Positions 5,926 through 31,310 are shown, counted from the stretch's first letter. The stretch: DNA of 64,000 bases from Alphaproteobacteria bacterium (GCA_965227095.1 CBDDFL010000001.1:85539-149538), one strand, 5' to 3'. A program made the numbers and translations. Notes: generated by a model from the sequence alone, not told the origin.

Positions 5926-6963
5926 ATGCTCAACGACTATGAAATCGCGAATGGCATGGTTCAACCAGCCCGCGCCTATGCTCTGTTTGAAAATGCGTGG
6001 CGCAACAAACACGGCCTCTCTCGAGACCAGCATCGCGCCCTGATCGGTGAATTGTTCGCCCCCTTTTCCGAGGTGGCGGCTCAAAATCCGTATGCGCAGT
6101 TTAGAGAAGCACGAACGCCGGACTATCTGGCAACACCGTCGGATGGGAACTTTGAGCTGGTAGACCCCTATCTGAAATGGCATGTGGCGCAGGATTCCGT
6201 AAACCAGGGCGCCGCCGTCATCCTGACCTCGGTCGCCAAAGCGCGAGAACTTGGCATTCCGGAAAGCAAATGGGTGTACCTGCATGGCTATTCCGACGCC
6301 TATGACCGGTTGGTAACCGCCCGCCGCGATTTCACCCGGTCAAACGCCATGCATGCAACGGTGAGCGAAGGCTTATCCACGTCCGGACGCACGGTCGATC
6401 AGATCGACCATTTTGAGATCTACAGCTGCTTTCCCTGCGCGGTGCTCTTTGCCTGCGATGCCTTGGGAATCGATTGGCGCCAGCACCAACTGACGCAAAC
6501 AGGCGGCCTTCCCTTCTTTGGCGGCCCCGGCAACAATTACAGCATGCATGGTATTGCCGCCATGGTGGAAAAATTGCGCGCCCATCCCGGCGACACGGGA
6601 CTGGTCCTCGCCAATGGGGGCTTTTTGACGAAGGAAGCCGTTGGGGTTTATTCGACCAGCCCGCAAGCGGATTGGACACCGAACCGCCGCAAGCAAGCCC
6701 AAGCGGAGGTGGACCGCGATGCCGAAATGCCCGTTTTTGAAACGCCGACCAGTGGAACGGTTGAAAGCTTCACGGCCTTCTACAAAAAGAAGGAAGCCTA
6801 TTCCGGTATGATCACCGGGCTGTCAAACGGTCAACGTTTCATGGCGCGCGTAGGCCAAGAAGATATGCGGACATTGCAAGAGCTTGTGTCCGGCGATCCC
6901 ATCGGCAAGCCTGTGACCGTTGAGAAGACCGACAAGGGCAACACGTTCCATCTCAGCTCTTAA
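5926..6963 (+). pseudogene. Thiolase-family protein, apparently 5'-truncated (about the N-terminal 130-150 aa incl. catalytic Cys missing)
   Basis: The translation matches the central and C-terminal parts of thiolase-like proteins (GAAVILTSVAKARELG, GxG-rich C-terminal domain). The ORF begins only 20 nt from the transposon terminus. No N-terminal thiolase segment is found on the other side of the element. Confidence 0.45.
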
Positions 6964-9313: not shown

Positions 9314-10181
9314 GCCGGAAGTTTTCGGTCAAGTGATCCAGAAACACACGCACCTTCAACGGTAAAAACGCCCGGTGGGCGTAGAGTGCCCGAATGGTGA
9401 GGGTCCGCTGGGCCCCACCAAACGGCAGTTGGACCAAGCGCTTGGCGCGCACATCCGTCGCCACAAAGAAATCAGGCAAAAAGGCAATCCCGGCACCCTC
9501 AAGGGCCAGGCGCCTCAACCCATCACCACTTGAGCACCGCACGGCCCACGCCGGGACGAACCCTCGGCCGGACATTTCCCAGTCCGTTATGCGCGTGCCT
9601 TGCGCGAAGACCAAGCAGCGATGCTGCGTCAGGTCCCGCTTTGAGGCGGGTGTGCCGTACTTCTTCACGTAAGCAGGGCTCGCGAAATAGCCATGCCGCG
9701 TCTCATCTATGGCGCGGCCAATCAGATTGCTTTCCATATCGCCGCCGACCCGGATGGCCACATCAATGCCCTCTTCCACCAGATCCACAAATCGGTCCGT
9801 GAGGTCCAGTTCAAGGCGCAATTGAGGAAAAGCGTCCAAGAAATCAGGCAACAACGGCGCAATCGCGAATTGGCCATAGGAGACCGGCGCGCTTATCCGC
9901 AACACCCCGTGCGGTTTTGCCGATTGTTCGGCAAGCGCGTCTTCAGTGGTGGCGATCTGTTCGAGCACGCTGCGCGCATGGTCTAGATACAGACGCCCTG
10001 CTTCCGTCAAACTGTTTCGCCGCGTGGTACGATTGAGAAGACGCGTCCCAAGATGGTCTTCCAGTGACGCAATCTGTTTGCTCACAACCGGCTTTGACAG
10101 GTTCAGCTTGCGGCCTGCGGCGGCGAAGCCACCTTCCTCTTCGACCGCCACAAACGTCTTCATGGCGCGCAAAACATCCAT
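9300..10181 (-). CDS. LysR-family transcriptional regulator
   Basis: MDVLRAMKTFVAVEEEGGFAAAGRKLNLSKPVVSKQI... wHTH plus LysR substrate-binding domain. Start chosen at the MD... codon (10181); the ORF extends to 10211. Confidence 0.85.
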   Translation of the reverse strand: MDVLRAMKTFVAVEEEGGFAAAGRKLNLSKPVVSKQIASLEDHLGTRLLNRTTRRNSLTEAGRLYLDHARSVLEQIATTEDALAEQSAKPHGVLRISAPVSYGQFAIAPLLPDFLDAFPQLRLELDLTDRFVDLVEEGIDVAIRVGGDMESNLIGRAIDETRHGYFASPAYVKKYGTPASKRDLTQHRCLVFAQGTRITDWEMSGRGFVPAWAVRCSSGDGLRRLALEGAGIAFLPDFFVATDVRAKRLVQLPFGGAQRTLTIRALYAHRAFLPLKVRVFLDHLTENFRLRAA

Positions 10182-10477: not shown

Positions 10478-11260
10478 ATGACCGATCTCTTATTGACTGA
10501 CATTCAAGACGGCATCGCCACACTGACCATCAACCGGCCGGAAAAGAAAAACGCCATGACCTATGCGATGCTCATGGAGTTTACGGAACTTGTCGGCACA
10601 CTCGGGCAAAATCCGGATGTCCGTGTTCTGATTATTACCGGCACGCAAGGGGCATTTTGTGCCGGAACCGACCTTGCGGATCTCGCGACCGTTCCCGGCA
10701 AAGAACGCGGGCTCCGAGGAAGCGCTGAAGAAAAACACCGGTGGTGGCCCATTGTGGAATGCCCCGTTCCGGTCATCGCGGCCATTGATGGTCCCGCCGT
10801 TGGCATGGGGGCCGAATTTTCCAGCCAATGCGACATTCGATTGGCGTCTTCCAATGCCCGTTTTGCTTGGAACTTCGCACAGCGAGGATTGGTGCCTGAT
10901 ACCGGCGCCGGATCTTGGCTACTGCCTCGCTTGATCGGGCATTCAAATGCCTTGCGTCTGCTGTACACGGCCGACTTCATCTCCGCCGAAGAAGCGCTTG
11001 ATCTTGGTTACCTTCACCAAGTTCTTCCGTCCGAAGACCTCTTGCCGGCGGCCAACGCGCTGGCCCAGAAAATGTTGCAAAGCTCGCCCTTTTCGTTACG
11101 CCGCATCAAATCCCTCGTCTACGAAGGCATGGGCAGTCACGTGGACGATCATATGCAGCGCCATACGCAAGCCATGTCGGAATGTTTCAAAAGTGATGAT
11201 CACGCTGAAGGCGTCGCCTCCTTCTTGGAACGCCGCCCCGCCAAATTCTCCGGCACCTAG
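10478..11260 (+). CDS. enoyl-CoA hydratase/isomerase (crotonase family)
   Basis: ITINRPEKKNAM..., GAFCAGTDL, VIAAIDGPAVGMG motifs; divergent from LysR. Confidence 0.85.
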   Translation: MTDLLLTDIQDGIATLTINRPEKKNAMTYAMLMEFTELVGTLGQNPDVRVLIITGTQGAFCAGTDLADLATVPGKERGLRGSAEEKHRWWPIVECPVPVIAAIDGPAVGMGAEFSSQCDIRLASSNARFAWNFAQRGLVPDTGAGSWLLPRLIGHSNALRLLYTADFISAEEALDLGYLHQVLPSEDLLPAANALAQKMLQSSPFSLRRIKSLVYEGMGSHVDDHMQRHTQAMSECFKSDDHAEGVASFLERRPAKFSGT

Positions 11261-18530: not shown

Positions 18531-20105
18531 ATGACTGAACCGCGTACACGTATACTGGTATTGGGCATTGATTCCGCGGAGCCACGACTTGTGCATGAAA
18601 TGGCGGGTGCGGGGCGTCTGCCCCATGTCGCCTCCTTGCTTAAAGGCGGCCTAACAGGGGCGGTTCAGAACCCTCGCGGTTTCGAATCCGGCACGGTGTG
18701 GCAGAGCTTTCATACGGGCAAAGAACCCGGCGGCCATCCCATGTATGATGGGCTACGCTATTTCAATCCGCAAACCTATGGTTTTTCGTTTCTCGAACAA
18801 TCAGAGGTCGGCGCCGATCTCATCTGGGAACATTTGTCAAAGCACGGCAAACGGTGCGCGGTGATTGACGCGCCTTATTGTCAGATCGGCCAAACCATCA
18901 ATGGCATTCTGGTTGCGGACTATGCGGTGCATGACGCCGCCCTCGGCGACAATGTGATCACCTTTGCAACCGACCCCGCCCCTCTGGCGCAAGAGCTGCT
19001 GGACCTGGTAGGTCCCGACCCCACGGGGGGCATTCAAAGTGACATTCCGCTGGTGGAAACACTGCAAGACCATATCGACTTCCGCGATAAATATTTCGCC
19101 CGCGTCGAGAAAAAGGGGCGCCTCATCAACCACATCCTGCAAAAAGAGCCGTGGGACTATGTAGAGGCCGTGTTTACCGAACCCCACAGTGTGGGGCATC
19201 GGTTGTGGCATGTGGCCAATCCCGACCACGACCAATATCAGCGGCATCTGCATGAGGCCCTGGGAGATCCCATCCGCGATCTTTATGAACTGACCGACAA
19301 GGCGATCGGCGAGGTTCTAGCCCAGTTGGATGACCGTACGCTGGTGATTTTCTACATAAGCCACGGCATGGAAAACCATTACACCGGCGTTGGTCTTCTG
19401 GATGAAGCCTTGGTTCAACTTGAACGTGGCGTGCCGGCCACCGGAGACCGGTCGCTCAAGGAAAAATTGCGCGGCGCGTGGCGGTCGATCCCGTCTGAAA
19501 CCCGGGGGCGCTTGCGTCCCTTCAAGAAGTTTTTCCACGGTGCGCTGTCTCCGCGCGAACAAGATTTCGCGGGCAACCGCCGTGACCGTCGCTTCTTCGA
19601 AGTCTATGCGAATTACAGAACCGGCGGTGTACGGATTAATCTGCAAGGGCGGGAAGCCAATGGATTGGTCGCCCCAGAAGACTATGATGCGCTGCTCACG
19701 GAACTGACAACCGATCTGCTGGCGCTGAAGAATGCGGATACGGGCGACAATTTGGTGGAAGAAGTGCTGCGCCCGCGCGACCTTTACGACGGCGCCTATG
19801 TAGACTATCTGCCTGACCTCTTGGTCTCGTTCGACCGGCGGGCGCCGATCAACCGTATCTCGTCAGATAAAATTGGTCTGATTGAACGCGCCTTTCCACC
19901 CGCCCGGTCCGGCGATCATTCCCGTTACGGACTGTTTGCGGCCACGGGCGCTGGCATCCCGCCCCGGAAACTCAACGCTACCGTCAACGCCGTGGATTTC
20001 TTTCCGACAGTGTGCCAAGCATTGGGTGTGGCAGCCCCAGGCTTCCCGGGAAAACCGATTGAGCATCTGCCCGCCGCCGCCCGCATGCTCGAAGACGCAC
20101 GTTAA
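18531..20105 (+). CDS. Alkaline phosphatase-like / type I phosphodiesterase-nucleotide pyrophosphatase family protein
   Basis: ILVLGIDSAEP...LPHVASLLKGG N-terminus (PF01663-like), ...ARSGDHSRYGLFAATG metal-site region; 524 aa; tandem paralog of the IS-disrupted gene. Confidence 0.75.
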   Translation: MTEPRTRILVLGIDSAEPRLVHEMAGAGRLPHVASLLKGGLTGAVQNPRGFESGTVWQSFHTGKEPGGHPMYDGLRYFNPQTYGFSFLEQSEVGADLIWEHLSKHGKRCAVIDAPYCQIGQTINGILVADYAVHDAALGDNVITFATDPAPLAQELLDLVGPDPTGGIQSDIPLVETLQDHIDFRDKYFARVEKKGRLINHILQKEPWDYVEAVFTEPHSVGHRLWHVANPDHDQYQRHLHEALGDPIRDLYELTDKAIGEVLAQLDDRTLVIFYISHGMENHYTGVGLLDEALVQLERGVPATGDRSLKEKLRGAWRSIPSETRGRLRPFKKFFHGALSPREQDFAGNRRDRRFFEVYANYRTGGVRINLQGREANGLVAPEDYDALLTELTTDLLALKNADTGDNLVEEVLRPRDLYDGAYVDYLPDLLVSFDRRAPINRISSDKIGLIERAFPPARSGDHSRYGLFAATGAGIPPRKLNATVNAVDFFPTVCQALGVAAPGFPGKPIEHLPAAARMLEDAR

Positions 20106-20214
20106 CACCGCGGTAAGCTTTGCCCGCGTTAACGCTAGCGGTTTATTAGGATTAATGCGCCATAGTCGCCCCAGTTTTACTGGTATTTCAAAGTAGTTCT
20201 CAGGCGGGCGTTTC

Positions 20215-21051
20215 ATGAAACCTGGCGTATACAAAGTATCCGATCTTCCGGCAGAGTTGGTCAGCACTCTTGATCTTAAAGGCGATTATGCGCTGTACGA
20301 CAAAGCACGCGGCGGCAGTTACCATTTCTTCGAAGTAGAACTTCTCAAGCGCATTGAAAGCGAACGGCAACTGATTGAAATCATTCGCTCGCCTGTGCAT
20401 GGGCATTTTCTGGTGCTGGATGGCGAGGTGCAAATCGCCAGCGCCGACGAACACGAATATCATGGTGCCTTTGCCCGCGAATCCCTTGCCTTCCTGGAAG
20501 AGCGCAACGCTAAACCCACCTACAAAGCCATGGTGTTCGGCGGCGGCGACGGCTGCCTGGCCCGCGAAATGCTGGATACGGATAAATTTAATTCCATCGA
20601 AATCATCGATTGGGACAAGGATGTGCTGGGCCTTTTCAGCGATGGCGAGATGGCGGATGTGTTTAACACCAAGCGGGTGTTTGCATCCGACACGGTCAAG
20701 GTCTACAGCGAGGACTTTCGGGATTATCAATTCGAAGCCTTGGGCGACAGTGTCGACATCCTTTATTTCGATTTGACCGACGAAGCGGTGGACGACCCCG
20801 CCTGGTCCGGCCAAATGGTCGACCTGCTCAACTACTTCATCGCCGACCAAAAGCAAGAATTGGTTCTGGCGGTGCAACTGGGGTCGCGCTTCTGTCACAC
20901 GCCGACGCAGAATTTTGAGCTGTTGCTCGGCGCGCTGAAAGACAAATTCAGCGATCAGAAAATCAAACTGACCCACAAGGAAATTTGCTTCTACATCCCG
21001 TCCTATTCCACCTATTGGGCGCTGGGATTTGTAGGCATTTCCTACGACTAG
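20215..21051 (+). CDS. Spermidine-synthase-like (polyamine aminopropyltransferase fold) protein
   Basis: FLVLDGEVQ and MVFGGGDGCLAREM motifs correspond to the SpeE substrate and SAM-binding signatures. The antisense ORF 20200-20976 was judged spurious. Confidence 0.6.
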   Translation: MKPGVYKVSDLPAELVSTLDLKGDYALYDKARGGSYHFFEVELLKRIESERQLIEIIRSPVHGHFLVLDGEVQIASADEHEYHGAFARESLAFLEERNAKPTYKAMVFGGGDGCLAREMLDTDKFNSIEIIDWDKDVLGLFSDGEMADVFNTKRVFASDTVKVYSEDFRDYQFEALGDSVDILYFDLTDEAVDDPAWSGQMVDLLNYFIADQKQELVLAVQLGSRFCHTPTQNFELLLGALKDKFSDQKIKLTHKEICFYIPSYSTYWALGFVGISYD

Positions 21052-21072
21052 AGTTCAAGGGGCACGGCGCCC

Positions 21073-21810
21073 CTACACGGACACTTTTTGATCGGCGCCC
21101 GTCTCTTTGGGGAGGGGCGCCATCTTCGTTTCAAGCGCCGAAATCTGGTCCCGAAACCGTCGCGCCGTGTCGTCATCGGCATAGGCCAGAAGATTGCACA
21201 GCCCCGTATGTTCGACGCGGGTCACAAAGTCCGCATCGCTCAACGCCCCCCGCGCCCACAAAATGGCCGTGCCGAACCAGCCCACCGTCAATTGAGAAGC
21301 GAGAATGTGCGGGTCGAAGCGCGCCGCCAGCGCCCCTTGTTCCAAGGCGCGGATCAAGGCGGTTTCCGCAAGTCCGGCGCCAAATTCCATGAACTCCAAA
21401 GGGCGGCTGGGGGAGCCCAAGGGGCGGTCCTTGTCGCCCGCCCACATGGGATGAAAGAGCGCCTTGCGCGCAATGCATTTTTCCGCCGCCACCGTCATGA
21501 TGGTCAGCACCTGCTCGATGGGGTCTTGATCTTCGGGGAGCGCCGTCAGTTCTTCTTCCAGGGTCGAAAAGGCGCGGTCTTCCAGCACGGCGGCGATGGC
21601 TTCCTTGCCGCCGCCATAGAGGTTGTAAAGCGTCTTGACGCTCAGCCCCACTTCCTGGGCCAGCGCCCGCATGGTGAAAGCGCTCAAGGAATCGCGCATG
21701 ATCAACCGCTCCGCCGAATCCAAGATTCGCTGGCGCCTGGCCTCCATATTGAGTGCGCGTTGATCCATCCCGACCACGGTCGATCCCATTGAGTCCCCGA
21801 TCTTTGGCAT
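21073..21810 (-). CDS. TetR-family transcriptional regulator
   Basis: HTH RQRILDSAERLIMRDSLSAFTMRALAQEVGLSVKTLYNLYG; divergent from the CYP153 gene. The true start is probably an internal Met (MDQRAL or MEARRQ). Confidence 0.8.
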   Translation of the reverse strand: MPKIGDSMGSTVVGMDQRALNMEARRQRILDSAERLIMRDSLSAFTMRALAQEVGLSVKTLYNLYGGGKEAIAAVLEDRAFSTLEEELTALPEDQDPIEQVLTIMTVAAEKCIARKALFHPMWAGDKDRPLGSPSRPLEFMEFGAGLAETALIRALEQGALAARFDPHILASQLTVGWFGTAILWARGALSDADFVTRVEHTGLCNLLAYADDDTARRFRDQISALETKMAPLPKETGADQKVSV

Positions 21811-21854
21811 CTAGCAAGTTGGCGCCGCAATCCGCAAGTGCCATTCACATTTTG

Positions 21855-21899
21855 CTTGACTACAACGCCGTTGTAACTTACAACATTGTTGTAGTCAAG
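21855..21899. promoter_or_regulatory. Nested perfect palindrome, likely TetR operator in tetR/CYP153 divergent promoter
   Basis: Outer IR CTTGACTACAAC (21855-21866) / GTTGTAGTCAAG (21888-21899); inner IR GTTGTAA-C-TTACAAC (21870-21884). Confidence 0.6.
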
Positions 21900-21917
21900 A
21901 TTTTCCCGGAGATCTCC

Positions 21918-23192
21918 ATGAGTCAGGCCGCCCTGAAACCGTCCACAACAGACACTTTCGACCCAAACGCGATCGCGCTGGAGGACATCGATCTGACGGA
22001 CGCGAATTACTATTTCAACCAACAGCATTGGGCCCTGTTCGAACGCCTGCGCAATGAAGATCCGGTGCATTTCTATGACCATGAAGAATTTGGCCGCATC
22101 TGGTCGGTGACCCGCTATGCGGACATCATGGCGGTGGACACCAACCACAAAACGTTCTCCTCCGAACCGTCCATCTTTATCGTCGATGGGCCCACGGGCG
22201 ACGATGAAAACTTCGACCCGGAAACCTTCATCGCCATGGACCCGCCAAAACACGACATTCAGCGCAAAGCGGTGACCCCGGCCGTTTCGCCCTCTGCGTT
22301 GATGGATTTGGAACCCCTGATCCGCGAGCGTGTGTGCAAGGTGCTCGACGGCTTGCCGGTGGGCGAAACCTTCAACTGGGTGGACCGGGTGTCGATCGAA
22401 ATCACCACCCAAATGTTGGCCACCCTGTTCGATTTCCCCTTCGAAGACCGCTACAAGCTGACCTTCTGGTCAGACCTCACAACCGCCAACGAAGAAGTGT
22501 TGGAAGAAATGGGGCTCACGGAAGAAGAACGCCGCGGACACCTGTATGAATGCTTGGAAACTTTCGGCAAGCTTTACGCCGAACGCGCGGCTCTTCCGCC
22601 TGCGAATGATTTCATCTCGCTGATGGCTCATAACGAGCATATGAAAAGCCTGGACCCCATGAACTTGCTCGGCAATCTGATGCTGCTGATCGTGGGCGGC
22701 AACGACACCACGCGGAATTCCATGTCCGGCGGCGTGCTGGCCCTGCATAACCATCCGGACCAATTCGCGAAGCTGAAGGCCGACCCGTCGGTCATCCCGA
22801 ACATGGTGTCGGAAATCATTCGTTGGCAGACGCCGCTGGCCTATATGCGCCGCACTGCCACGGAAGATGTGGAACTGGGCGGCAAGACCATCAAAAAAGG
22901 CGACCGGGTATTGATGTGGTACATCTCCGGCAACCGCGACGAGCGGGACATTGACCGCCCCAATGAATTCCTGATCGACCGGGAAGGCGCCCGCCGCCAC
23001 CTATCCTTTGGCTTCGGCATTCACCGCTGCATGGGCAACCGTGTGGGCGAAATGCAGGTGCGCATTCTGTGGGAAGAAATTCTCAACCGCTTCGACCGGG
23101 TGGAAGTGGTGGGCACGCCCGTGCGCACTTTCTCGAACTTCGTGATGGGCTTCACCGACCTACCTGTCGTCGTGCACCCGAAGACGAGCTAG
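21918..23192 (+). CDS. Cytochrome P450, CYP153 family (alkane/alkyl omega-hydroxylase-like)
   Basis: CYP153 signatures LLIVGGNDTTRNSMSGG, EIIRWQTPLAYMRRTA, heme loop FGFGIHRCMGNRVGE. Confidence 0.9.
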   Translation: MSQAALKPSTTDTFDPNAIALEDIDLTDANYYFNQQHWALFERLRNEDPVHFYDHEEFGRIWSVTRYADIMAVDTNHKTFSSEPSIFIVDGPTGDDENFDPETFIAMDPPKHDIQRKAVTPAVSPSALMDLEPLIRERVCKVLDGLPVGETFNWVDRVSIEITTQMLATLFDFPFEDRYKLTFWSDLTTANEEVLEEMGLTEEERRGHLYECLETFGKLYAERAALPPANDFISLMAHNEHMKSLDPMNLLGNLMLLIVGGNDTTRNSMSGGVLALHNHPDQFAKLKADPSVIPNMVSEIIRWQTPLAYMRRTATEDVELGGKTIKKGDRVLMWYISGNRDERDIDRPNEFLIDREGARRHLSFGFGIHRCMGNRVGEMQVRILWEEILNRFDRVEVVGTPVRTFSNFVMGFTDLPVVVHPKTS

Positions 23193-23204
23193 GCGATCAG
23201 CCTT

Positions 23205-23232
23205 GACGGACGGGGTTTGCAACCCCGTTTAC
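23205..23232. repeat. REP-like palindrome (degenerate copy) immediately after CYP153 stop
   Basis: gacggacggggtttgcaaccccgtttac (compare consensus TTGACGGACGGGGTTACAAACCCCGTCCGTCAA). Confidence 0.5.
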
Positions 23233-23238
23233 CTCTGT

Positions 23239-23637
23239 TTATTTCTCACCAGGTTCACCTTGCGCGGTGGAGAGGAGTCTGACCAACAGTCCAAGCAAGG
23301 TCAAAGAGATTAGACCGTAGAGGCCGACGATTGACCAGCCATTTTCATTCGCCCCGGCATACTGTCCCTGGATCGCCATGACCGTGCTCAAAGACGTTGC
23401 GATCAGAAGGGATGACACAAACCCCATACGCAGGTTTCTATCCTCAGTTCGACGGGCGAACCATGCGCACATGCCCATGCCGATGAGTGTCGAGCCCCAG
23501 AACCGATAGATGACGATCCCCATGGCGCTCAATTGAACATCGTAATTTGCCAACATATCTTCGGGGAACAGAACACATAGAGCGCCAGAGACAATGGTTA
23601 CTACGGCCAAAATTGAAAGTACCAATTTATACGTCAC
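23239..23637 (-). CDS. hypothetical small membrane protein (4 predicted TM)
   Basis: 132-aa hydrophobic ORF; no family recognised. Confidence 0.5.
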   Translation of the reverse strand: MTYKLVLSILAVVTIVSGALCVLFPEDMLANYDVQLSAMGIVIYRFWGSTLIGMGMCAWFARRTEDRNLRMGFVSSLLIATSLSTVMAIQGQYAGANENGWSIVGLYGLISLTLLGLLVRLLSTAQGEPGEK

Positions 23638-23676
23638 GGCCTTTTCCTTTTTTTTAGGGTCTAATGATGTCGAGTG

Positions 23677-24984
23677 TTAGGCTGACAAGCTCAGCCCCAC
23701 TTGCTTTTTGACCTGGGCCAAAGCAGCGCGATAGGTGTCGATATGCACATAATTTGCATGTCGTTGAGAGTCGACATAACGGTGGCCAGCCGTGAGGTCG
23801 GGCTTATGCGTCTTTTTCATTTTTGAAAGCTTTTCTTTCAAGGGCGATTCGGCATTGGCCGCGGCATCTGCCGCGATTAACTCAGCCATCTGATCAAAAT
23901 TTGCGTATGCCGCCGAGGAGAATTCCACAAACCCAAGAAACGCCAAATTGCTGTGCTTTCTGGAAAACATTCCCAAATAAAGATCGGGCCGCCCCTTCTT
24001 TTTGTCTACGTCGGCTGGGTCCAGGAACGGGATGTCGTGTTTGTATCCGGTCGCCGCTATGATGAGATCCACCTGCTCTCTAGACCCGTCAACAAATTCA
24101 ACACAATGGCCATCCAATCTCGCAATGTCCGGTTTAACGACACAATCGCCGTGCCCCACATAGTGCAGAATCTGGGTGTTCATCAACGGATGAGATTGAA
24201 ACAGTTTGTGGTCCGGCTTCGGAAATCCGTATCTCGCAACATTGCCATTCATCAAGTTCAGGATCAACGTGATTGCCGGCGTGGAAATCCAGTCCGGAAG
24301 CTTGGCCCCTTTCCTCGCAAACACATCCGTCGGCTGTCCCATGATGTATTTCGGCACAAAATGATAACCCCTTCGTACGCTGATGAATGTCTGCTTCGCT
24401 GCAAATGCCGCATCACACGCAATGTCTGCGCCGGAATTCCCAGCGCCAACGATCAGCACACGTTTTCCAGCAAACTCCGACGGCGATCGATATGTGATTG
24501 AATGTCGAATTTCTCCGTCAAAATTTCCGGGCCATGAAACTAAGTTAGGTTCCCAAGTCACTCCATTGGCGCAGATCAAATAACGGGCGGTAAGGGTTTC
24601 ACCCTCTTTCGTTTCTAACTTCCATTTCCCCTGACGGTCACGCTTGGCATGGGTAATATGGGTGTTCAGTCTTACGTGTTTGCGTAAATCAAACGTGTCG
24701 GCGAACGACCGGATATAGTCGAGAACAAGTGTGTGATTTGGGTAGTCGGGGTAACCATCGGGCATTGGAAATCCGGGAATTCCCGACAATGACCGAGACG
24801 AAATAAAGTGGGCGGAGTCGTACATCGGCGATCCAGGTGCATCAATGTCCCAAACACCTCCTACGTCAGACCCACGATCAATTAACTGAAACCTTGTGTC
24901 ATATGACTGGAGGTGTTTTGCCAGAATCAATCCGGCAGGGCCCGCACCAACAACCAAAACATCCCATTCTTTCGTCTCATTCAT
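23677..24984 (-). CDS. Flavin-containing monooxygenase (FMO-like, two dinucleotide-binding motifs)
   Basis: VLVVGAGPAGL (FAD) and LIVGAGNSGADIA (NADPH) GxGxxG motifs, FMO-like FxGxxxHS region. Confidence 0.85.
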   Translation of the reverse strand: MNETKEWDVLVVGAGPAGLILAKHLQSYDTRFQLIDRGSDVGGVWDIDAPGSPMYDSAHFISSRSLSGIPGFPMPDGYPDYPNHTLVLDYIRSFADTFDLRKHVRLNTHITHAKRDRQGKWKLETKEGETLTARYLICANGVTWEPNLVSWPGNFDGEIRHSITYRSPSEFAGKRVLIVGAGNSGADIACDAAFAAKQTFISVRRGYHFVPKYIMGQPTDVFARKGAKLPDWISTPAITLILNLMNGNVARYGFPKPDHKLFQSHPLMNTQILHYVGHGDCVVKPDIARLDGHCVEFVDGSREQVDLIIAATGYKHDIPFLDPADVDKKKGRPDLYLGMFSRKHSNLAFLGFVEFSSAAYANFDQMAELIAADAAANAESPLKEKLSKMKKTHKPDLTAGHRYVDSQRHANYVHIDTYRAALAQVKKQVGLSLSA

Positions 24985-25004
24985 TCAAATACCCCCCCTC
25001 TTTC

Positions 25005-25048
25005 GTGACTAGTAGTCACGTTACAAAATACGACTATTAGTCACGTTT
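25005..25048. promoter_or_regulatory. Candidate operator in FMO promoter: palindrome GTGACTAGTAGTCAC plus direct repeat of CTAnTAGTCACGTT
   Basis: gtgactagtagtcac at 25005-25019; ctagtagtcacgtt (25008-25021) and ctattagtcacgtt (25034-25047), 20-60 bp upstream of the FMO start. Confidence 0.45.
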
Positions 25049-25230
25049 TGAGTTTTGTCAAGCGGAACTCCGCATCGGAAACACGCAGACGACAGAAAAG
25101 TTTCGCTGCTCTTTCACCGGATGAGGGAGCCGACCGTTCTCCAAAAGGAAAGTTGGGGTGTTCAAATTAAAGCACGCGGTCGAAACAATGTGCCGCGAGA
25201 ATGTCGGTTGCGCCGTGCTAAGCAGCATTA

Positions 25231-25309
25231 CTCAGCACTCAGCACTCAGCACTCAGCACTCAGCACTCAGCACTCAGCACTCAGCACTCAGCACTCAGCA
25301 CTCAGCACT
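25231..25309. repeat. Heptanucleotide microsatellite (CTCAGCA)x11.3, perfect
   Basis: Direct reading of ctcagca repeated 11 times plus ct, ending at the tetR stop codon (25309-25311); lies in the 324-bp FMO upstream region. Confidence 0.95.
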
Positions 25310-25932
25310 TAAGATACCGATCGATTTTCCAAAATATGCAAGCAGGTTAATCCACAGAAGGCATCAATCGTTCTTTTTGCCTCCGCTGGAGACAGGACTG
25401 CTACGAGACGAATTGCGGCATCTGCCAATTCCAGCATCAACAAGACGCGCTCCGCAATCGATTTGCGGGACCCGTGAACACCTCGGCTCGCCAAAAACCC
25501 AGCGACGATTTTTGCGTTCTTTCGACTGTCTTCCAAATCCAGACGCGAGAGCTCCGGATCTTCACGAATAACGGCTCTCAACTGCACACGAAACGGTTCT
25601 CTTTGATGCCGTTCAAGATATTCCCGAAAGCCAATGCGCAATATTTCCTCCGGCGATATATCCGGCCCAATCGTTGCGTGGATCAGATCAGCCCCATCCT
25701 TATAGACCCGTTTGATAAGCGCATGGACGATTGCCGGTTTTCCCGGGAAATACCGATAGACTGCCGCTTTCGATATCCCGGCCCGTTTCGCGATTTCGGT
25801 AATCGTGATCTTGTCGATACTATTGGACGACAACAACTCCTCCAGCGCCCCCAGAATCGATTCAACACCGGTCTTGCTTCGGGTTTGCTCGGGTTCACGT
25901 CTGAGCTCTAAGTCTGTGTTAGACATTCTCAT
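25309..25932 (-). CDS. TetR-family transcriptional regulator
   Basis: HTH ITITEIAKRAGISKAAVYRYFPGKPAIV; 207 aa. Confidence 0.85.
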   Translation of the reverse strand: MRMSNTDLELRREPEQTRSKTGVESILGALEELLSSNSIDKITITEIAKRAGISKAAVYRYFPGKPAIVHALIKRVYKDGADLIHATIGPDISPEEILRIGFREYLERHQREPFRVQLRAVIREDPELSRLDLEDSRKNAKIVAGFLASRGVHGSRKSIAERVLLMLELADAAIRLVAVLSPAEAKRTIDAFCGLTCLHILENRSVS

Positions 25933-26091
25933 TCAATTCCTTATGTCGGTCGCGCCGGAGAAGCTGACATCGTGTTTTGTAATCCTACCCTCGAGAAGCT
26001 CGACATGCACCGTCGCTGATGGAACCGAATAGGAAATGCCACACGAACAGAGCAACAAGGCCATAACGACGCTGGCAATGAGTCTTGGCAT
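25933..26091 (-). CDS. possible small lipoprotein (52 aa), not in supplied ORF track
   Basis: Manual translation MPRLIASVVMALLLCSCGISYSVPSATVHVELLEGRITKHDVSFSGATDIRN; signal-peptide-like with Cys; stop abuts the tetR start codon. Confidence 0.25.
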   Translation of the reverse strand: MPRLIASVVMALLLCSCGISYSVPSATVHVELLEGRITKHDVSFSGATDIRN

Positions 26092-26133
26092 TTTCTAACC
26101 CCCAATTCGGAAAATGGGTCTAGTTTCTCTATT

Positions 26134-26170
26134 GATGGGCGGGGTTACAAACCCCGTCGGTCGCCCGCCT
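26134..26170. repeat. REP element copy 2
   Basis: gatgggcggggttacaaaccccgtcggtcgcccgcc; palindromic core GGGGTTACAAACCCC. Confidence 0.7.
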
Positions 26171-26179
26171 TAAAGCGTC

Positions 26180-26956
26180 TTAGCGCGGCGACCGCCCATA
26201 GACGAGGCCGAGGCCTTGTGTCTTGTATCCTAACAATACCAACAATTCGTCCGACGCGGTTTCGATCACTTCCTTGTCGAGTGACAGAAACCAGTTTTCC
26301 TGCGTTCGGTAAATCGGCCTCGTGTACCAGCCGAACAACGCCGCGCGCGGATGTTGGGAACGGTTGCTGCCGGTGCGGTGGCGCACGCGGCTTTCGAACA
26401 CCATCAGCGTTCCCGCCGGTGCGATCACGGGAATCGCTTTTGCGGGAAGCTCGGTTTCGTCCGCATCGCCGGGCAACACATGGCTGTGTGGCACCACTTC
26501 GGTTGCCCCATTATCCGCCGTGAAATCGTCCAGCAGCACACCCACATTCATGCCTTGCGGGGCCGCCGGCCATGGCGTGGGCACGAAAAGCTGATCGGCA
26601 TGTAACATGCCGCCGTCACTGCCTGGTTCGGCGATATTGGCGGAGATATTACCGAGGAGCGCCGGCCAGCCGATCACCTCGCGTAACAGGTCGAGCACGA
26701 TCGGCAATTGGACGATGTCGCGAAACACCGCATCGCGATTGAGAATGTTCCAAACACGGACATTTTTATCGCCATAATCCAGGCCGAACATATCGGCTTT
26801 TCGGCCCAGACGCCGGTCCTCGTCCACCGCCGCATAGGTCGCGGCGCGCGCCGTTTCCAGTTGCGCGGCCGACAGCTGTCCACAGATCAACGCCAATCCG
26901 TGCTCGCGAATATGGTCCTTGGCATCGGCAGCGTTATCAACGACGGGAGGGAGCAT
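26180..26956 (-). CDS. Phytanoyl-CoA dioxygenase (PhyH) family Fe(II)/2OG oxygenase
   Basis: HADQ...H...R pattern (GGMLHADQLF, TEVVPHSHV, RHRTGSNRS), 258 aa. Confidence 0.8.
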   Translation of the reverse strand: MLPPVVDNAADAKDHIREHGLALICGQLSAAQLETARAATYAAVDEDRRLGRKADMFGLDYGDKNVRVWNILNRDAVFRDIVQLPIVLDLLREVIGWPALLGNISANIAEPGSDGGMLHADQLFVPTPWPAAPQGMNVGVLLDDFTADNGATEVVPHSHVLPGDADETELPAKAIPVIAPAGTLMVFESRVRHRTGSNRSQHPRAALFGWYTRPIYRTQENWFLSLDKEVIETASDELLVLLGYKTQGLGLVYGRSPR

Positions 26957-27030
26957 GGTTACGTCCAGATTTGTGCAGCGGTTGTGACGATCTCATAGTA
27001 TGACACAACCAATTGACATACACCTCCCTA

Positions 27031-27064
27031 TTGACGGTCGGGGTTACAAACCCCGTCCATCAAC
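27031..27064. repeat. REP element copy 3
   Basis: ttgacggtcggggttacaaaccccgtccatcaa. Confidence 0.8.
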
Positions 27065-27077
27065 TGGGAACCAATCC

Positions 27078-27620
27078 TTAGCTTCTACCGTCGGGATCAC
27101 TTTCGCCGCCATCCTTCCAATTCTGTTGAAGGTCTGTCCACAGTTTGGACTGCTGATCAGGCGAGTCGAGACGGGATTGAAGATAAGTTCGCGGGCTGGG
27201 GGGAACGATATGGGTGTTTTCTGTTTGGGTCCACCATTCCGGAATTGACCGAATGGTAACAAGAAGAGATTGCATGATCACTTCAAACGATTCCTCATCC
27301 AACAGGCCCTTTTCGTACAATTGCAACGCGTCATGCGCATTTCCCAAATAGCGCCACATGAACATGTCGAACGACGAGCTGTCCTGCTGGTCCATTGTTG
27401 CGTATCCATTTACCGCCGCCAGCATGATGCGACGCAATTCGGCGTTTTTCGCAACATCCCAAGAGTTGCCGTGAAAATTGCCCATAACGGACCGTGCGCT
27501 TTCGATGCGATAGTTGCGATTTGACTGGCGGATCTGAATCGCGAGGTAAATGAGCGATAAGATGACGCCCACTGCCGCCAAAAAATCTGAAATCGCGCTA
27601 ATGGCTGACCAGTTCATCAT
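27078..27620 (-). CDS. hypothetical membrane-anchored protein (paralog of 27843-28364)
   Basis: N-terminal TM ...VGVILSLIYLAIQIRQSNRNYRIESARSV resembles ...AAILGSLIFVGVQIRQNTLATRRQSLDGV of the neighbour. Confidence 0.55.
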   Translation of the reverse strand: MMNWSAISAISDFLAAVGVILSLIYLAIQIRQSNRNYRIESARSVMGNFHGNSWDVAKNAELRRIMLAAVNGYATMDQQDSSSFDMFMWRYLGNAHDALQLYEKGLLDEESFEVIMQSLLVTIRSIPEWWTQTENTHIVPPSPRTYLQSRLDSPDQQSKLWTDLQQNWKDGGESDPDGRS

Positions 27621-27683
27621 CTTTCCTCTCGTTCACATCAGGGATTTTTAGTTGATTTTCCAAAGGATGTCTTCTCTACATTC

Positions 27684-27729
27684 TCTCGACGGACGGGGGG
27701 ACGGGGTTACAAACTCCGTCCGTCAACGG
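27684..27729. repeat. REP element copy 4
   Basis: ctctcgacggacggggggacggggttacaaactccgtccgtcaacgg. Confidence 0.8.
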
Positions 27730-27842
27730 AAACTGTGATGCAACCAATGTCACTTCTCTCATCGGCCTGACAATGACATTCTTTGATCAGACAGATAATG
27801 TCGCTCGTCTGCAAAACACCTCTTTTATGCGGGGAGAAGGTC

Positions 27843-28364
27843 ATGTCGCTCGAGACCATTTACTATATCGGCCAAACGATTGCCGTTGCGGCGATTCTAG
27901 GTTCGCTCATATTTGTTGGCGTTCAAATTCGCCAGAATACGCTTGCGACCAGAAGACAATCTCTAGACGGCGTGATTGACCGAATTGTTCGGTGGCAGTC
28001 AAGGCTAACCAGCACGCCGACTCATGTGGATAGCTGGGTCAAAGGGCTGCAGAACTTTGACAGTCTTCCCGTTGAAGAAAAAATCCATTTCAATGCCCTC
28101 ATCATAGAAATTCTGGTAACTCTCGAGGCGGGACGAGAGGCCGGTAAGACGGGCGATATTAAGCCTGAAACCATTGAGGCGATGGACGGCATGATCGTCC
28201 AACTCTTCCGAAACGCCGGCGTAAGGGAATATTGGCGCCAAGCAAATTACGCGGCGGATTTTATGGCCTACGTCGATAAAATTACAGAGAAGGTGACAGC
28301 GATCCCCAATAGTGACCCCGGGTCCTTGCCGTTTTATGTACCGCCGGAAGAGGCAACTCAATGA
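27843..28364 (+). CDS. hypothetical membrane-anchored protein (paralog of 27078-27620)
   Basis: GGAGAAGG SD before the ATG at 27843; the same N-terminal TM-IQIRQ architecture as the divergent neighbour. Confidence 0.55.
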   Translation: MSLETIYYIGQTIAVAAILGSLIFVGVQIRQNTLATRRQSLDGVIDRIVRWQSRLTSTPTHVDSWVKGLQNFDSLPVEEKIHFNALIIEILVTLEAGREAGKTGDIKPETIEAMDGMIVQLFRNAGVREYWRQANYAADFMAYVDKITEKVTAIPNSDPGSLPFYVPPEEATQ

Positions 28365-28519
28365 AATGCGATGCAGTCTGGTCTGCTCCCTTCGACATTG
28401 CCTTTGGACTGTGATGACCGGATCAAGTATTGCAGCGTTTGGTTTTTTTGAAAGAGATCTAAGGTTATCCGGCCGTTTATGAACATCATAACAACGTCCA
28501 CGTCATAAAAATTCTTCAC

Positions 28520-28557
28520 TCTCGACAGACGGGTTTTGTAACCCCGTCCGCAGGTTC
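28520..28557. repeat. REP element copy 5 (inverted relative to copy 6; flanks RAYT start)
   Basis: ctctcgacagacgggttttgtaaccccgtccgcaggttc. Confidence 0.8.
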
Positions 28558-28559
28558 AT

Positions 28560-29111
28560 ATGATCCGCCTATTAGATCGGAGAACGTGGCCTATGCCAAT
28601 CGTGCGTATCAAACCGTTTGCAAAAGATGGTGTCTATTTCGTGACGCCGACGGTTTGGAATTGGTACTACCTGTTCGATCGGCACAATCGGTGGCAGATC
28701 ATCGCGGACAGTCTGCGGTATTGCCAAGATCACAAATCTCTCAAGATCTACGCTTACGTCTTCATGCTGAACCATCTGCATTTGATCATTCAGGCGGACG
28801 ATGCCGAAAACGTTTTGCGGGATTTTAAGCGGCACACCTCAAAAGCGCTCAAAGAGAATATTCGCGCAACGGAACCAAATGTCCTGACATTATTCGAAAC
28901 CACTGATAGCACCTGGCGTCTTTGGAAAGCAGATAACCAACCACAGCTGATTGAAACGGAAAAGTTCTTTCGCCAGAAGCTCGATTACATTCACGCCAAC
29001 CCCGTACGCAAAGACGACGGGTCACAAGCCGAACACTGGAAATGGTCATCCGCTAATCCGGATAGCCCTCTAAAAATTGAACCGTTATCCTTATTGACGG
29101 GACAGCAATGA
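28560..29111 (+). CDS. REP-associated tyrosine transposase (RAYT, IS200/IS605-like Y1 HUH)
   Basis: HUH motif MLNHLHLIIQ and catalytic Tyr region LDYIHANPVRK; 183 aa; flanked by inverted REPs. Confidence 0.85.
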   Translation: MIRLLDRRTWPMPIVRIKPFAKDGVYFVTPTVWNWYYLFDRHNRWQIIADSLRYCQDHKSLKIYAYVFMLNHLHLIIQADDAENVLRDFKRHTSKALKENIRATEPNVLTLFETTDSTWRLWKADNQPQLIETEKFFRQKLDYIHANPVRKDDGSQAEHWKWSSANPDSPLKIEPLSLLTGQQ

Positions 29112-29149
29112 ACCTGCGGACGGGGTTACAAACCCCGTCCGTCAATGGC
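29111..29149. repeat. REP element copy 6 (flanks RAYT stop)
   Basis: gaacctgcggacggggttacaaaccccgtccgtcaatggc; the outer arm gaacctgcgg is the inverse of ccgcaggttc at copy 5. Confidence 0.8.
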
Positions 29150-29187
29150 ATAGGCAGCGTTGTCAACGAGAGGCGGCAGCACGTTTA
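29150..29187 (-). pseudogene. 12-codon remnant of a second PhyH-like gene start fused to REP copy 6
   Basis: The rc reads GTG-LPPLVDNAAYA..., compared with the intact PhyH N-terminus MLPPVVDNAADA; about 80% nt identity over about 100 bp to 26921-27030, including upstream sequence. Confidence 0.45.
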
Positions 29188-29418
29188 CGTCCGTATTTGT
29201 TTGGGCGGCTGAAGACGCTTCTCAGTATGGCATAGACATGATGCGTGCTTATCCCGCTCTCTACGCGGGAATAGGCAACATTAGCGAACGAATCACTAAC
29301 CTGGCAGCCTAATTAAGTATAGCAGGTGCCAATTTGGTGGGAAACCAAATGGATCGCACTTGCCCTCCATCGGTGCTTTGTTATTCTGGGACAATCTTAA
29401 CGATAATGGAGGAAGCTC

Positions 29419-29847
29419 GTGTCTACACCGACAGACGGTAGTTTTGACGCCCTAAATCTAGACGCTGTCTTAAACACAGCTGTTGATCAAGCCTCTGGAA
29501 TAATCAGCAGTGTCAAAAATCCTTCGTGGGATAAACTATCGCCGGTAAAGCAGTTCCCCGGCAAAATTTCGAAAAATGTCATCCCAATAGATTTTGAAGA
29601 ATATCGGATGCAGATTGTCACAAAAGTTGAACCCGGCACTCTTGTCGACACACATAAGCATGTGGAATCCGTATTCCGATATGTCCTGGATGGCGACCTT
29701 ACAATAAATGGTCTGGCACACGGACCAGGTGATTGGGTACTTGTCCCTGGAAACACCCCATATCGAGTAACAACAAACGGCGGATACACAGTTCTAGCTT
29801 CTTACGGAGCCAAATGCGGATCCCCACATGACCGCGTCGTTAAGTAA
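29419..29847 (+). CDS. cupin-domain protein
   Basis: ThkHvesvFryVLdGdLti...GpGdwvlvPgn pattern of small cupins; located in a low-GC islet. Confidence 0.55.
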   Translation: MSTPTDGSFDALNLDAVLNTAVDQASGIISSVKNPSWDKLSPVKQFPGKISKNVIPIDFEEYRMQIVTKVEPGTLVDTHKHVESVFRYVLDGDLTINGLAHGPGDWVLVPGNTPYRVTTNGGYTVLASYGAKCGSPHDRVVK

Positions 29848-29926
29848 GACATTGAAACATCAGCACAGAACCTTTGCGGACGAGATATCAAACTGTCGAT
29901 AGATAATCTATGTGGGGTTTCGCTGA

Positions 29927-30616
29927 ATGCCTCTCACCATGACTATATTTCCAAAATTAAATGAGAAGGTACTAATACGGTGGATCGAGACATATTGCGA
30001 GCTCCATGATGTTTCCCATTGTCGTCCAAAAGTTTTCGCCGAATCCGATTGGGAAACCGATATTGATATTTTTGCAGATCAGAACAGTTGGGTGCGCGTG
30101 GAATGGCCTCCGTTATTCGGTATAAACACGGTCCCAGCTTCAGAGTATTTTTCACGAGCGCTTGATTCTGTCGTCGTTTCCTCGGAATTTCTTGATGACC
30201 ACGGATGGACCTATGTGATTCTGGATCGAGGCGTGATCAAGGACAAGTTTGTAAATTCACGTTTCAGATATAACCTTACCGAGGAGGAGGCAAAAGATTA
30301 CGTCGGGAATGCAGAGATTTTGGCTAAACACTTCAACATCCCTACACAGAATATCATTCCGTATTTGCGGCACATTGAAAGCTATGGAATATGGGATGAG
30401 CTAAAAGTCTTGTTGGGCTTAAAAATGAGACCCAAACCAATTGGCAAAGTTTTTTTGGATGACCGCTATCAATTGGATGACGAGCGTGTTTTTTTTGATT
30501 TTTGGCGCCGACTTGGTTTTAATCTTTCTTACGATGGTGCACCTGCAGGAACTGCTCGAATCAAGATAAAAAAAGGCTTTCACGACAAGTTCCCCAAAAA
30601 TCAAATAAGTTTCTAG
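29927..30616 (+). CDS. hypothetical protein (low-GC islet)
   Basis: 229-aa ORF, about 40% GC versus about 60% surroundings; no family recognised. Confidence 0.5.
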   Translation: MPLTMTIFPKLNEKVLIRWIETYCELHDVSHCRPKVFAESDWETDIDIFADQNSWVRVEWPPLFGINTVPASEYFSRALDSVVVSSEFLDDHGWTYVILDRGVIKDKFVNSRFRYNLTEEEAKDYVGNAEILAKHFNIPTQNIIPYLRHIESYGIWDELKVLLGLKMRPKPIGKVFLDDRYQLDDERVFFDFWRRLGFNLSYDGAPAGTARIKIKKGFHDKFPKNQISF

Positions 30617-30647
30617 CGACCTCCACGTTATCACAGCAAACTGGCCC

Positions 30648-31310
30648 CTACTCCACCCGCTCGAAATCCTTGAACAGCAGCACATAGTCTTCCGAGATGG
30701 CGCGGCGCAGGGTTGAGCCTTCGCGGCAGATGACGGCACGGGTAAGCAGTGGCGGCAGGTCCGCGAACACGCGTTCGAAATGGTGTTCGAACACGAACTT
30801 GTCGAAACGCATGAATAGGGTCGGTTCGATTTTTTCATCCGTACGGATACTATATCGGGTAAGGCCGCCTAGTGGACCTAAACCAAGTTCCGCCTGCACG
30901 TTTTCAGCCACCTTGGACTGCCGCGGCGCCTGAAACCGATAGACCGTTTCGACAGGTGACATGGAGATCAATTCCGCTCCCGCGATGGACTTGCGGTAGT
31001 CCGCCGCCACCAAGCCGCCTGGCATGGCCTCCAACCGTTTGGCGTGGGCCAGTTTACCGCGCGCCGTCGCGTCGAGTGCATTCGGGTCGCCCTTGAGCAC
31101 CGTCCACCGCCCGCTTGAGGCGTTGTAGCGTTCGACGATTTCGGGGCCGTCCGCCCATTGAAACACCAAGGTGAACGATAGGCGCAGATCCGCATGGGCT
31201 TCGGCCTCTCGCAGCGCTTGCTCCACCGGATCGGGCAAGGTGCTGGCCCCTGCGGGCACCGCACCCAATAACGCCCCTATGAGGGCGAGAATTTTGACCA
31301 ATGACCCCAT
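30648..31310 (-). CDS. hypothetical secreted protein
   Basis: Signal peptide MGSLVKILALIGALLGAVPAGAST; 220 aa. Confidence 0.55.
   Translation of the reverse strand: MGSLVKILALIGALLGAVPAGASTLPDPVEQALREAEAHADLRLSFTLVFQWADGPEIVERYNASSGRWTVLKGDPNALDATARGKLAHAKRLEAMPGGLVAADYRKSIAGAELISMSPVETVYRFQAPRQSKVAENVQAELGLGPLGGLTRYSIRTDEKIEPTLFMRFDKFVFEHHFERVFADLPPLLTRAVICREGSTLRRAISEDYVLLFKDFERVE

Follow-up and report, generated by a model that had tools for sequence, protein, structure and literature searches.

A REPtron consists of a gene for a tyrosine transposase (RAYT) associated with repetitive extragenic palindromes (REPs), the gene being flanked by inverted REPs (PMC2817692, PMC3116915, PMC3733652, PMC5581495). 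RAYTs are usually single-copy and vertically inherited (PMC5581495), and the REPs cleaved by the classical enzymes have an unpaired GTAG tag at one end (PMC3733652). Here we describe a REPtron in a 64-kb stretch (64,000 nt) of DNA from an Alphaproteobacteria bacterium (GCA_965227095.1, CBDDFL010000001.1:85539-149538), referred to throughout as the window. It belongs to a block of REP-bounded DNA that lies between two copies of the 5′ end of a PhyH-family oxygenase gene: copy A, which is part of the intact gene, and copy B, a stub cut off by a REP. The A/B repeat is genuine. As to its origin, our best reading, put forward tentatively, is an old insertion-linked direct duplication, made as DNA bounded by REPs went into the 5′ part of one PhyH gene.

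The RAYT of the window, together with the inverted REPs around it, is a bona fide REPtron. Its likeness to the described systems is threefold: the protein lies above the cutoff of the NCBIfam REP_Tyr_transpos equivalog NF047646 (85.5 bits versus 80), hairpins formed by REPs of 36 nt flank the gene in inverted orientation (28524-28559 and 29108-29143, 94% complementary), and RAYTs with as little as 75% aa identity still come with the same REP sequence. The translation carries the HUH (HLH) and YIHANP motifs; the match to Pfam Y1_Tnp is weak (E=0.0011), and a PDB sequence search with the RAYT gave no match. Among the 819 homologues found, many are labelled RayT by their source, and inverted REPs also surround the RAYTs of the contigs L167, L168 and L169. 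The locus differs from described REPtrons in that its REPs look few and clustered, all six of those in the 64 kb viewed lying in one islet rather than dispersed, in that no GTAG head is visible in them, and in that extra REP-bounded ORFs are attached. Moreover, the islet is missing from a relative of 84-87% nucleotide identity, a poor fit to vertically inherited RAYTs (PMC5581495).

A repeat search of the window returned a direct repeat of 60 nt at 80% identity (26915-26974 versus 29141-29200), which local alignment lengthens to ~92 nt (~26915-27005 versus 29141-29233). This alignment scores 39, compared with 8.4±1.3 and a maximum of 15 over 2000 shuffles (z ~24), and the next best match to B on either strand of the window scores 14. 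The repeat is therefore a real and unique one, and an origin by chance or from low-complexity sequence is ruled out. An earlier, sequence-only reading of the window had proposed this second copy, and it proves to be a true homologue of the PhyH 5′ end and its upstream DNA; the concern that the similarity might be confined to a short low-complexity stretch did not hold on formal alignment. Over the first 12 codons plus one nucleotide A and B are identical at 30/37 positions (81%), and over the core of the repeat (26920-26974 versus 29146-29200) at 45/55 (82%). Further upstream (26957-27024 versus 29183-29245) identity is 62% with 11 gap columns, and the whole repeat, gaps counted, stands at 68.5%, so that the claim of ~80% identity over 100 nt describes the proximal 55-60 nt and fails for the repeat overall.

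Both copies have the same orientation, B lying 2.2 kb upstream of A, and the order read in the direction of PhyH is: upstream context, positions -70 to +37, REP6, the remainder of the block, REP3, positions -70 to +37 again, gene body. On each inner side the homology reaches a REP, with B meeting REP6 at 29145/29146 and A meeting REP3 at ~27025-27030. An insertion with a duplication of its target on either side has this geometry. The block in between measures 2.1 kb. It had been described as a REP-RAYT-REP unit and nothing else, an account that overlooks orf180, orf173 and the presence of four REPs, as the following features show.

26180-26956, minus strand: intact gene for a PhyH-family 2-oxoglutarate/Fe(II) oxygenase, 258 aa (PF05721, E=1.3e-24)
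26920-27024, minus strand: copy A, PhyH codons 1-12 (plus 1 nt) and ~68 nt upstream, adjoining REP3 (repeat search and alignment)
27030-27064, plus strand: REP3, whose hairpin sits near -70 of PhyH and folds as DNA at -12.3 kcal/mol (z -3.65)
27078-27620, minus strand: orf180, a REP-bounded cassette of no known family, with an N-terminal transmembrane (TM) helix and a QIRQ motif
27688-27728, plus strand: REP4, with an internal GGACGGGG duplication
27843-28364, plus strand: orf173, a REP-bounded cassette and weak orf180 paralogue (BLASTP 31% over the N-terminal 45 aa, E=6e-5)
28524-28559, minus strand: REP5, the left 36-nt inverted repeat of the REPtron
28560-29111, plus strand: RAYT, whose likely true start is the ATG at 28593, giving 172 aa
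29108-29145, plus strand: REP6, the right inverted repeat of the REPtron, which cuts off the stub (fold -14.6 kcal/mol, z -5.06)
29146-29240, minus strand: copy B, a dead PhyH stub with a GTG at 29180-29182, 11 further codons and ~58 nt of homologous upstream DNA (alignment)

Copy B is a non-functional PhyH 5′ stub, an ordinary pseudogene fragment with no evident function. Its reading frame (29126-29182, minus strand) runs GTG-LPPLVDNAAYA, after which REP6 supplies IDGRGL and a stop. PhyH homology in B begins at 29146, directly after the REP6 hairpin; truncation after 12 codons at this REP, as the sequence-only reading had it, is thus exact to the REP edge. With 12 codons only, B is without the PhyH double-stranded beta-helix and the HxD...H iron site, a domain that the intact gene (26180-26956) does contain. 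No remnant of a PhyH body was found by tblastn at E<1 in 27060-29146 or 29147-30647, and no REP lies at or beyond the upstream end of B (29240-29420). A small GC hairpin that is not REP-like (CCCGC-N7-GCGGG, 29252-29270; -6.4 kcal/mol, z -3.1) stands just upstream of the point where the A/B homology fades out. Stub codons 7-12 are 84% complementary to 28580-28598 in the start region of RAYT (GAGAACGTGGCCTATGCCA), a match that is made in part by a D>Y change in B and is probably due to chance. This 19-nt inverted match (28580-28598 versus 29146-29164) was discarded as a candidate for its asymmetric placement and for a strength equal to that of chance pairs in the same list.

An extended -10-like motif, TGnCATAnT, is present 41 nt away from the start codon in A (TGTCATACT, 26997-27005), in B (TGCCATACT, 29224-29232) and in the PhyH orthologue of the related contig L165. 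The idea that the promoter was duplicated along with the gene end is plausible on account of the motif common to A and B, and yet a simple sigma-70 scan of both copies found no promoter. The motif and the start codon kept in B point into REP6 and the antisense strand of RAYT, which is what one would expect if the stub were itself functional, for example as a retained promoter for antisense transcription across RAYT. Against this, B is absent from L167 despite the presence there of the same RAYT (93% aa identity), making a conserved regulatory role unlikely, and Rfam returned no match in 22900-30900. We regard a functional stub, or a similarity due to chance or low complexity in the face of a unique match at z ~24, as scarcely credible.

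The six REPs of the window are copies of one palindrome with the consensus TTGACGGACGGGGTT-ACA-AACCCCGTCCGTCAA and a TCTCTA-like head, and all fall within 23.2-29.2 kb. They fold as strong DNA hairpins; in a terminator scan they have no T-runs and are not intrinsic terminators. In both cassette ORFs an N-terminal TM helix leads into (I/V)QIRQ(S/N). Neither orf180 nor orf173 belongs to a Pfam, NCBIfam or PADLOC family or occurs in L165, L166 or L167, and PADLOC also returned nothing for orf229, the cupin gene or RAYT. A conserved pairing of orf173/orf180 with RAYT was considered and rejected, the genes upstream of RAYT in L171 and L172 being unrelated to them. A Pfam scan of nine islet proteins, which took in every ORF between A and B but neither the DUF8292 ORF nor any shorter than 40 aa, found no integrase domain.

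Our preferred, tentative reading takes these elements as the outcome of an insertion. In a first step, a single ancestral PhyH gene would have received REP-bounded DNA, namely an ancestral REP or REPtron, in its 5′ region, and ~105 nt (-70 to +37) would then have been copied on both sides of the insert. The downstream arm A, at REP3, would keep the start codon and upstream control region, so that the gene stays alive, a form of survivorship bias; the upstream arm B, at REP6, would keep the original upstream context, lose the gene body and decay. The insert may later have been enlarged by further REP-bounded cassettes and remodelled by recombination at REP edges. As for the enzymology, template switching at REP hairpins during replication or repair would be the simplest and most likely route; re-integration of a REP-ended circle, or catalysis or strand transfer by RAYT, are possible others. 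Because both inner junctions fall at REP edges and the arms share one orientation, a single event explains both ends of the repeat. The lack of a second PhyH, and of any remnant of a PhyH body in the block or in the relatives, also favours an insertion, as do the age of the repeat, the frequency of breakpoints at REP edges and the empty single-REP site of L166, all described below.

By analogy, insertion-linked duplication would have a precedent in the REPtron of L168, which belongs to the same RAYT/REP clade (RAYT 75% identical, same REP). There, a perfect direct repeat of 52 nt (9689-9740 and 10603-10654), which corresponds to the 3′ end of a host gene of 536 aa, encloses the REPtron. The live gene contains copy 2 and ends ..GGVGRA-stop, and copy 1 adjoins the leftmost REP with an alternative end, ..GGVGGQ-stop, followed by the original downstream DNA. 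The same contig carries a 186-nt tandem duplication (97%, 9739-10110) of a REP and RAYT codons 1-36, and its 43-aa RAYT stub reads into the REP and ends ..GRGL-stop, the same REP-encoded tail as that of the PhyH stub. In L172, a 111-nt direct repeat of 96% identity (2800-2910 and 3714-3824) surrounds another RAYT (60% identical), with a REP before each copy. Within this clade, long direct repeats that bracket a REPtron and stubs fused to a REP edge are recurrent, and at least one case is recent. As a separate observation, the 111-nt repeat of L172 may belong to a REPIN and not to host target sequence.

The locus was compared with the related contigs L165, L166, L167 and L169, found by anchoring on orf220 and RAYT (L169 for RAYT only). 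In the window it occupies a variable islet, for which three further features are needed.

23187-30647: REP-punctuated variable islet, 7.4 kb, between P450 (21753-23192) and orf220 (30648-31310)
23203-23232, minus strand: REP1, at the left edge of the islet, just past the P450 stop
26131-26163, plus strand: REP2, 17 nt downstream of the PhyH stop

GC content over the islet is 45-50%, apart from PhyH at ~59%; it is 48-50% in the A-B block, 45% in the cupin/orf229 segment (29419-30616) and 58-62% outside 23.2-30.65 kb. L166, whose flanks are 84-87% identical to those of the window, is an empty site: it is without window 23187-30653, and its P450-orf220 gap of ~240 nt (2542-2780) holds a single REP. 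L165 has flanks of 85-86% identity and a different islet content, in the order minus-strand membrane ORF, REP with a 338-aa gene, REP with an acetyltransferase gene, REP with upstream A and PhyH, 4HBT, TetR. Its REP3, A and PhyH match window 27061-26181 at 85.8% over 885 nt, and since this unit is common to both, the REP at about -70 of PhyH is older than the window/L165 split. The closest relative is L167 (96.5% over 7 kb, typically 98%), which matches window 19952-26966. The match stops 10 nt upstream of the PhyH ATG and is followed by 24 unrelated nt, REP5-RAYT-REP6 (94.8%), 550 unrelated nt and orf220; L167 is without A from -11 to -70, REP3, orf180, REP4, orf173, B, the cupin gene and orf229, and retains a RAYT with 93% aa identity. 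L169 is a short RAYT contig with the same REPs.

The sequence-only reading had favoured an ancestral tandem PhyH duplication in which the body of one paralog was replaced by the REP/RAYT block. In such a history both paralogs would have been functional for long before the upstream body was lost. The position of B, 2.2 kb upstream of A in the same orientation, suits it, the kept coding part of B suggests a period under selection, and PhyH-family genes often form adjacent pairs in relatives, though these are only ~35% identical. The comparative evidence runs the other way. No second PhyH occurs in L165, L166, L167 or L169 (the first three have one PhyH or none, and L167 does not have B either), so that an intact second gene at the syntenic locus, the natural trace of a tandem duplication, did not turn up, and no body remnant is left. 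After an unequal crossover between REPs, B should also have a REP at -70, and it has none. A tandem origin further needs a duplication, long retention, a replacement with both of its ends exactly at REP edges, and independent losses in L165 and L167. We consider it doubtful. The alternative named alongside it, a REP-associated rearrangement, fits the comparative data, with 5-6 of the 8 breakpoints between the window and its relatives at REP edges.

More distant PhyH orthologues were uninformative as a guide to the history of the locus, having neither synteny nor conserved upstream DNA. Amino acid identity to the window PhyH is 93% in L167, ~90% in L165 and 77-78% in metagenome-assembled genomes of Pseudomonadales/Gammaproteobacteria; the distant orthologues in GTDB genomes and JGI metagenomes do not exceed 77-78% and have none of the window's genes around them. 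The DNA upstream of them bears no relation to A or B, and the A/B similarity is thus specific to the window lineage. Some distant relatives have an adjacent PhyH paralogue of only ~35% identity, which was rejected as a source of B because it is too distant for a copy of ~80% identity that includes non-coding DNA.

We next consider the age of B. In a three-way alignment, the A copies of the window, L165 and L167 (the last with 46 nt retained) share states that are absent in B: TCTGG versus TACGG, AACC-ATG versus AAAC-GTG, CTC CCT CCC versus CTG CCG CCT, and GAT versus GAC. At sites that differ among the A copies, B agrees with one or the other. These shared states make B the outgroup to the sampled A alleles, and the alignment shows that B is old, its split from A being earlier than the divergence of the three lineages sampled. 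Upstream identity is 66% between the A copies of the window and L165, and 58% and 51% between B and these two, which places the A/B split at only roughly 1.2-1.5 times the lineage divergence. The proposal that the stub dates REP/RAYT activity relative to the gene duplication is usable only in a weak form: B predates the divergence of the three lineages and the REP3-A junction predates the window/L165 split, two dates that do not set the order of the events.

Several points weigh against an old insertion-linked duplication. We know of no IS200/IS605-type HUH transposase that makes target duplications, and for this reason A and B cannot be a canonical target-site duplication; the length of the repeat is likewise not fixed (~105 nt in the window, 52 nt in L168, 111 nt in L172), unlike that of a transposon target-site duplication. 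B is found in no relative examined, L165 and L167 included, which calls for its loss or replacement in both of these haplotypes, and the A-B block does not stay together as a unit from one lineage to another. In B, moreover, the coding part is better kept than the upstream part (81% versus 62%), and 5 of the 6 differences from the A consensus outside the start codon are synonymous third-position changes. These substitution patterns hint that B was for a time part of a working gene. In full, the 12 codons differ between B and the A consensus at 7 positions: the start codon, five synonymous third positions and one D>Y. Outgroup orthologues suggest that B acquired the start-codon change and the D>Y change, and that 2-3 of the synonymous changes arose along the A stem. 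About 10 differences would be expected had B always been neutral and ~4 had it always been constrained, and the 7 seen are too few to decide. A codon-position test was discarded as proof of selection, as its p=0.018 holds only with all changes neutral and significance is lost when A is taken to have evolved under constraint.

Recombination at the locus bears on where B came from. REP edges hold 5-6 of the 8 breakpoints that separate the four haplotypes; they are shown to be the usual breakpoints, and the locus to be a REP-seeded hypervariable islet. In a three-way alignment of PhyH (window 26180-26956, L167 6192-6968, L165 3596-4371), L167 has the allele of L165 over nt 1-200 and 500-560 and groups with the window elsewhere. 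The L165-like tracts comprise 37 window-unique sites, L167 and L165 being only ~2.5% apart there, and the tract stops exactly at the -10 breakpoint of L167. Identity between the window and L167 is also mosaic, at ~98% in the left flank, ~95% in RAYT, 92-98% in orf220 and ~90% further right. Because of this PhyH mosaic and the mosaic identity on the right flank, homologous exchange between co-occurring lineages is demonstrable, with some exchanges ending in an illegitimate junction. The loop of REP2 is flipped between the window (ACA, 26131-26163) and L167 (TGT, 6143-6175), and that of REP3 between the window (27030-27064) and L165 (3488-3523). In these orthologous pairs the flanks are conserved and the loops inverted (TTACAAA versus TTTGTAA), which suggests conversion or recombination between REPs in opposite orientation. 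Two simple derivations of L167 were rejected: a REP3 x REP5 deletion would leave A intact, but L167 has lost A, and for a join of two ACGTCC motifs the 24-nt filler of L167 differs from the window sequence.

Such exchange opens a second route to the repeat, in which B, the cupin gene and orf229 would have been imported from a diverged relative whose islet had PhyH adjoining that DNA. B would then be the stump of the other lineage's orthologue and not a duplicate made in the window genome. The event would be a homology-facilitated illegitimate recombination, with a crossover in or at orf220 and a join (microhomology TGG) of PhyH codon 12/13 to REP6. This kind of recombination was reportedly described in bacteria by de Vries & Wackernagel in 2002; a homologous anchor together with a microhomology junction would give the B-REP6 boundary, and the PhyH tract of L167 shows exactly such a pattern, although no donor sequence has been identified here. 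In favour of an import are the inter-lineage exchange just described, the lean of the B substitutions towards synonymous changes, the low GC of the cupin/orf229 segment, and the absence of B, the cupin gene and orf229 from all relatives. Among 5.8 billion proteins, homologues of the cupin reach at most 66%, and the best ones stand in unrelated contexts without a PhyH neighbour. Telling against it, no donor haplotype was found, two independent events would be needed to set the ends of the A/B homology where an insertion needs one, and B and the cupin/orf229 segment are not one compositional unit: third codon positions in B are GC-rich, PhyH-like and unlike those of cupin/orf229. We judge an import possible though unlikely, and retain the insertion-linked duplication as the tentative best reading.

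Other features of the window stand apart from the repeat. A 52-aa ORF at REP2 (25933-26091, minus strand) is a 5′ fragment (~35 codons; homology 25989-26162) of a 338-aa lipoprotein-like gene that is intact in L165 (1934-2950), making it a second truncated-gene scar in the islet. The REP with the start of this gene lies downstream of PhyH in the window and L167; in L165 it lies upstream of PhyH, two cassettes away. A perfect heptanucleotide array, (ACTCAGC)x11 (25230-25306), separates the TetR stop from the FMO start, and L167 has only 6 units there, of the variant ACTTAGC; the array is a hypervariable microsatellite in a possible regulatory intergenic region. ARAGORN reports a 502-nt permuted tmRNA at 1800-2301 with the atypical tag peptide AGPDEVRGSGPNQNCALSAP; the call coincides in part with long ORFs on either strand and may be a false positive.

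Should the pattern be general, REPs and REPtrons would not be passive repeats but would drive local gene turnover, and stubs such as B could be used as timestamps. The usual picture of a RAYT is that of a domesticated transposase, immobile and inherited vertically, with the spreading of REPINs as its one visible activity. The haplotypes form a natural series between the same two core genes (an empty one-REP site, two differing cassette arrays, an array with RAYT beside PhyH, and the window array with its stub), and in two independent cases the end of a host gene is repeated, at length and in direct orientation, on both sides of a REPtron. One may speculate that in this RAYT/REP clade REP hairpin edges act as portable insertion or recombination sites that build integron-like cassette arrays at a chromosomal hotspot, that the REPtron moves or is captured there, and that insertion at a gene end makes a 50-110-nt duplication that keeps the target alive. 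We think this improbable; if true, cassette capture with target repair would be a mode not described for HUH Y1 enzymes.

The integron likeness itself is superficial. As in integron arrays, short structured repeats lie between small, mostly promoterless ORFs, content and order vary, and an empty site holds a single repeat. Unlike integrons, the locus has no IntI, its REPs are not attC sites (inspection found no recognisable attC core-site motif), several breakpoints lie off the REPs and the orientation is mixed. Genomic islands that enter gene ends regenerate the gene and leave direct repeats (attL/attR, at the ends of tRNA or protein genes) together with a displaced fragment. The window shares with these a gene-end fragment, an insert and an intact gene with a regenerated end, with repeats of tens to ~100 nt and a gene that survives; it differs in that the block has an HUH Y1 enzyme as its only recombinase-like protein, and no tyrosine or serine integrase, and in that the ends of the insert are REP hairpins. 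In Salmonella, Shyamala et al. in 1990 reportedly found REP sequences at the join points of tandem chromosomal duplications. There as here, a REP lies exactly at the junction of a duplicated gene segment, but the unit produced by REP x REP unequal crossover in Salmonella is REP-bounded on both sides, whereas the outer end of B has no REP and only ~105 nt are duplicated. REPs are thus already known as recombination hotspots and duplication junctions, and the scar at this PhyH gene is of the ordinary REP-associated kind.

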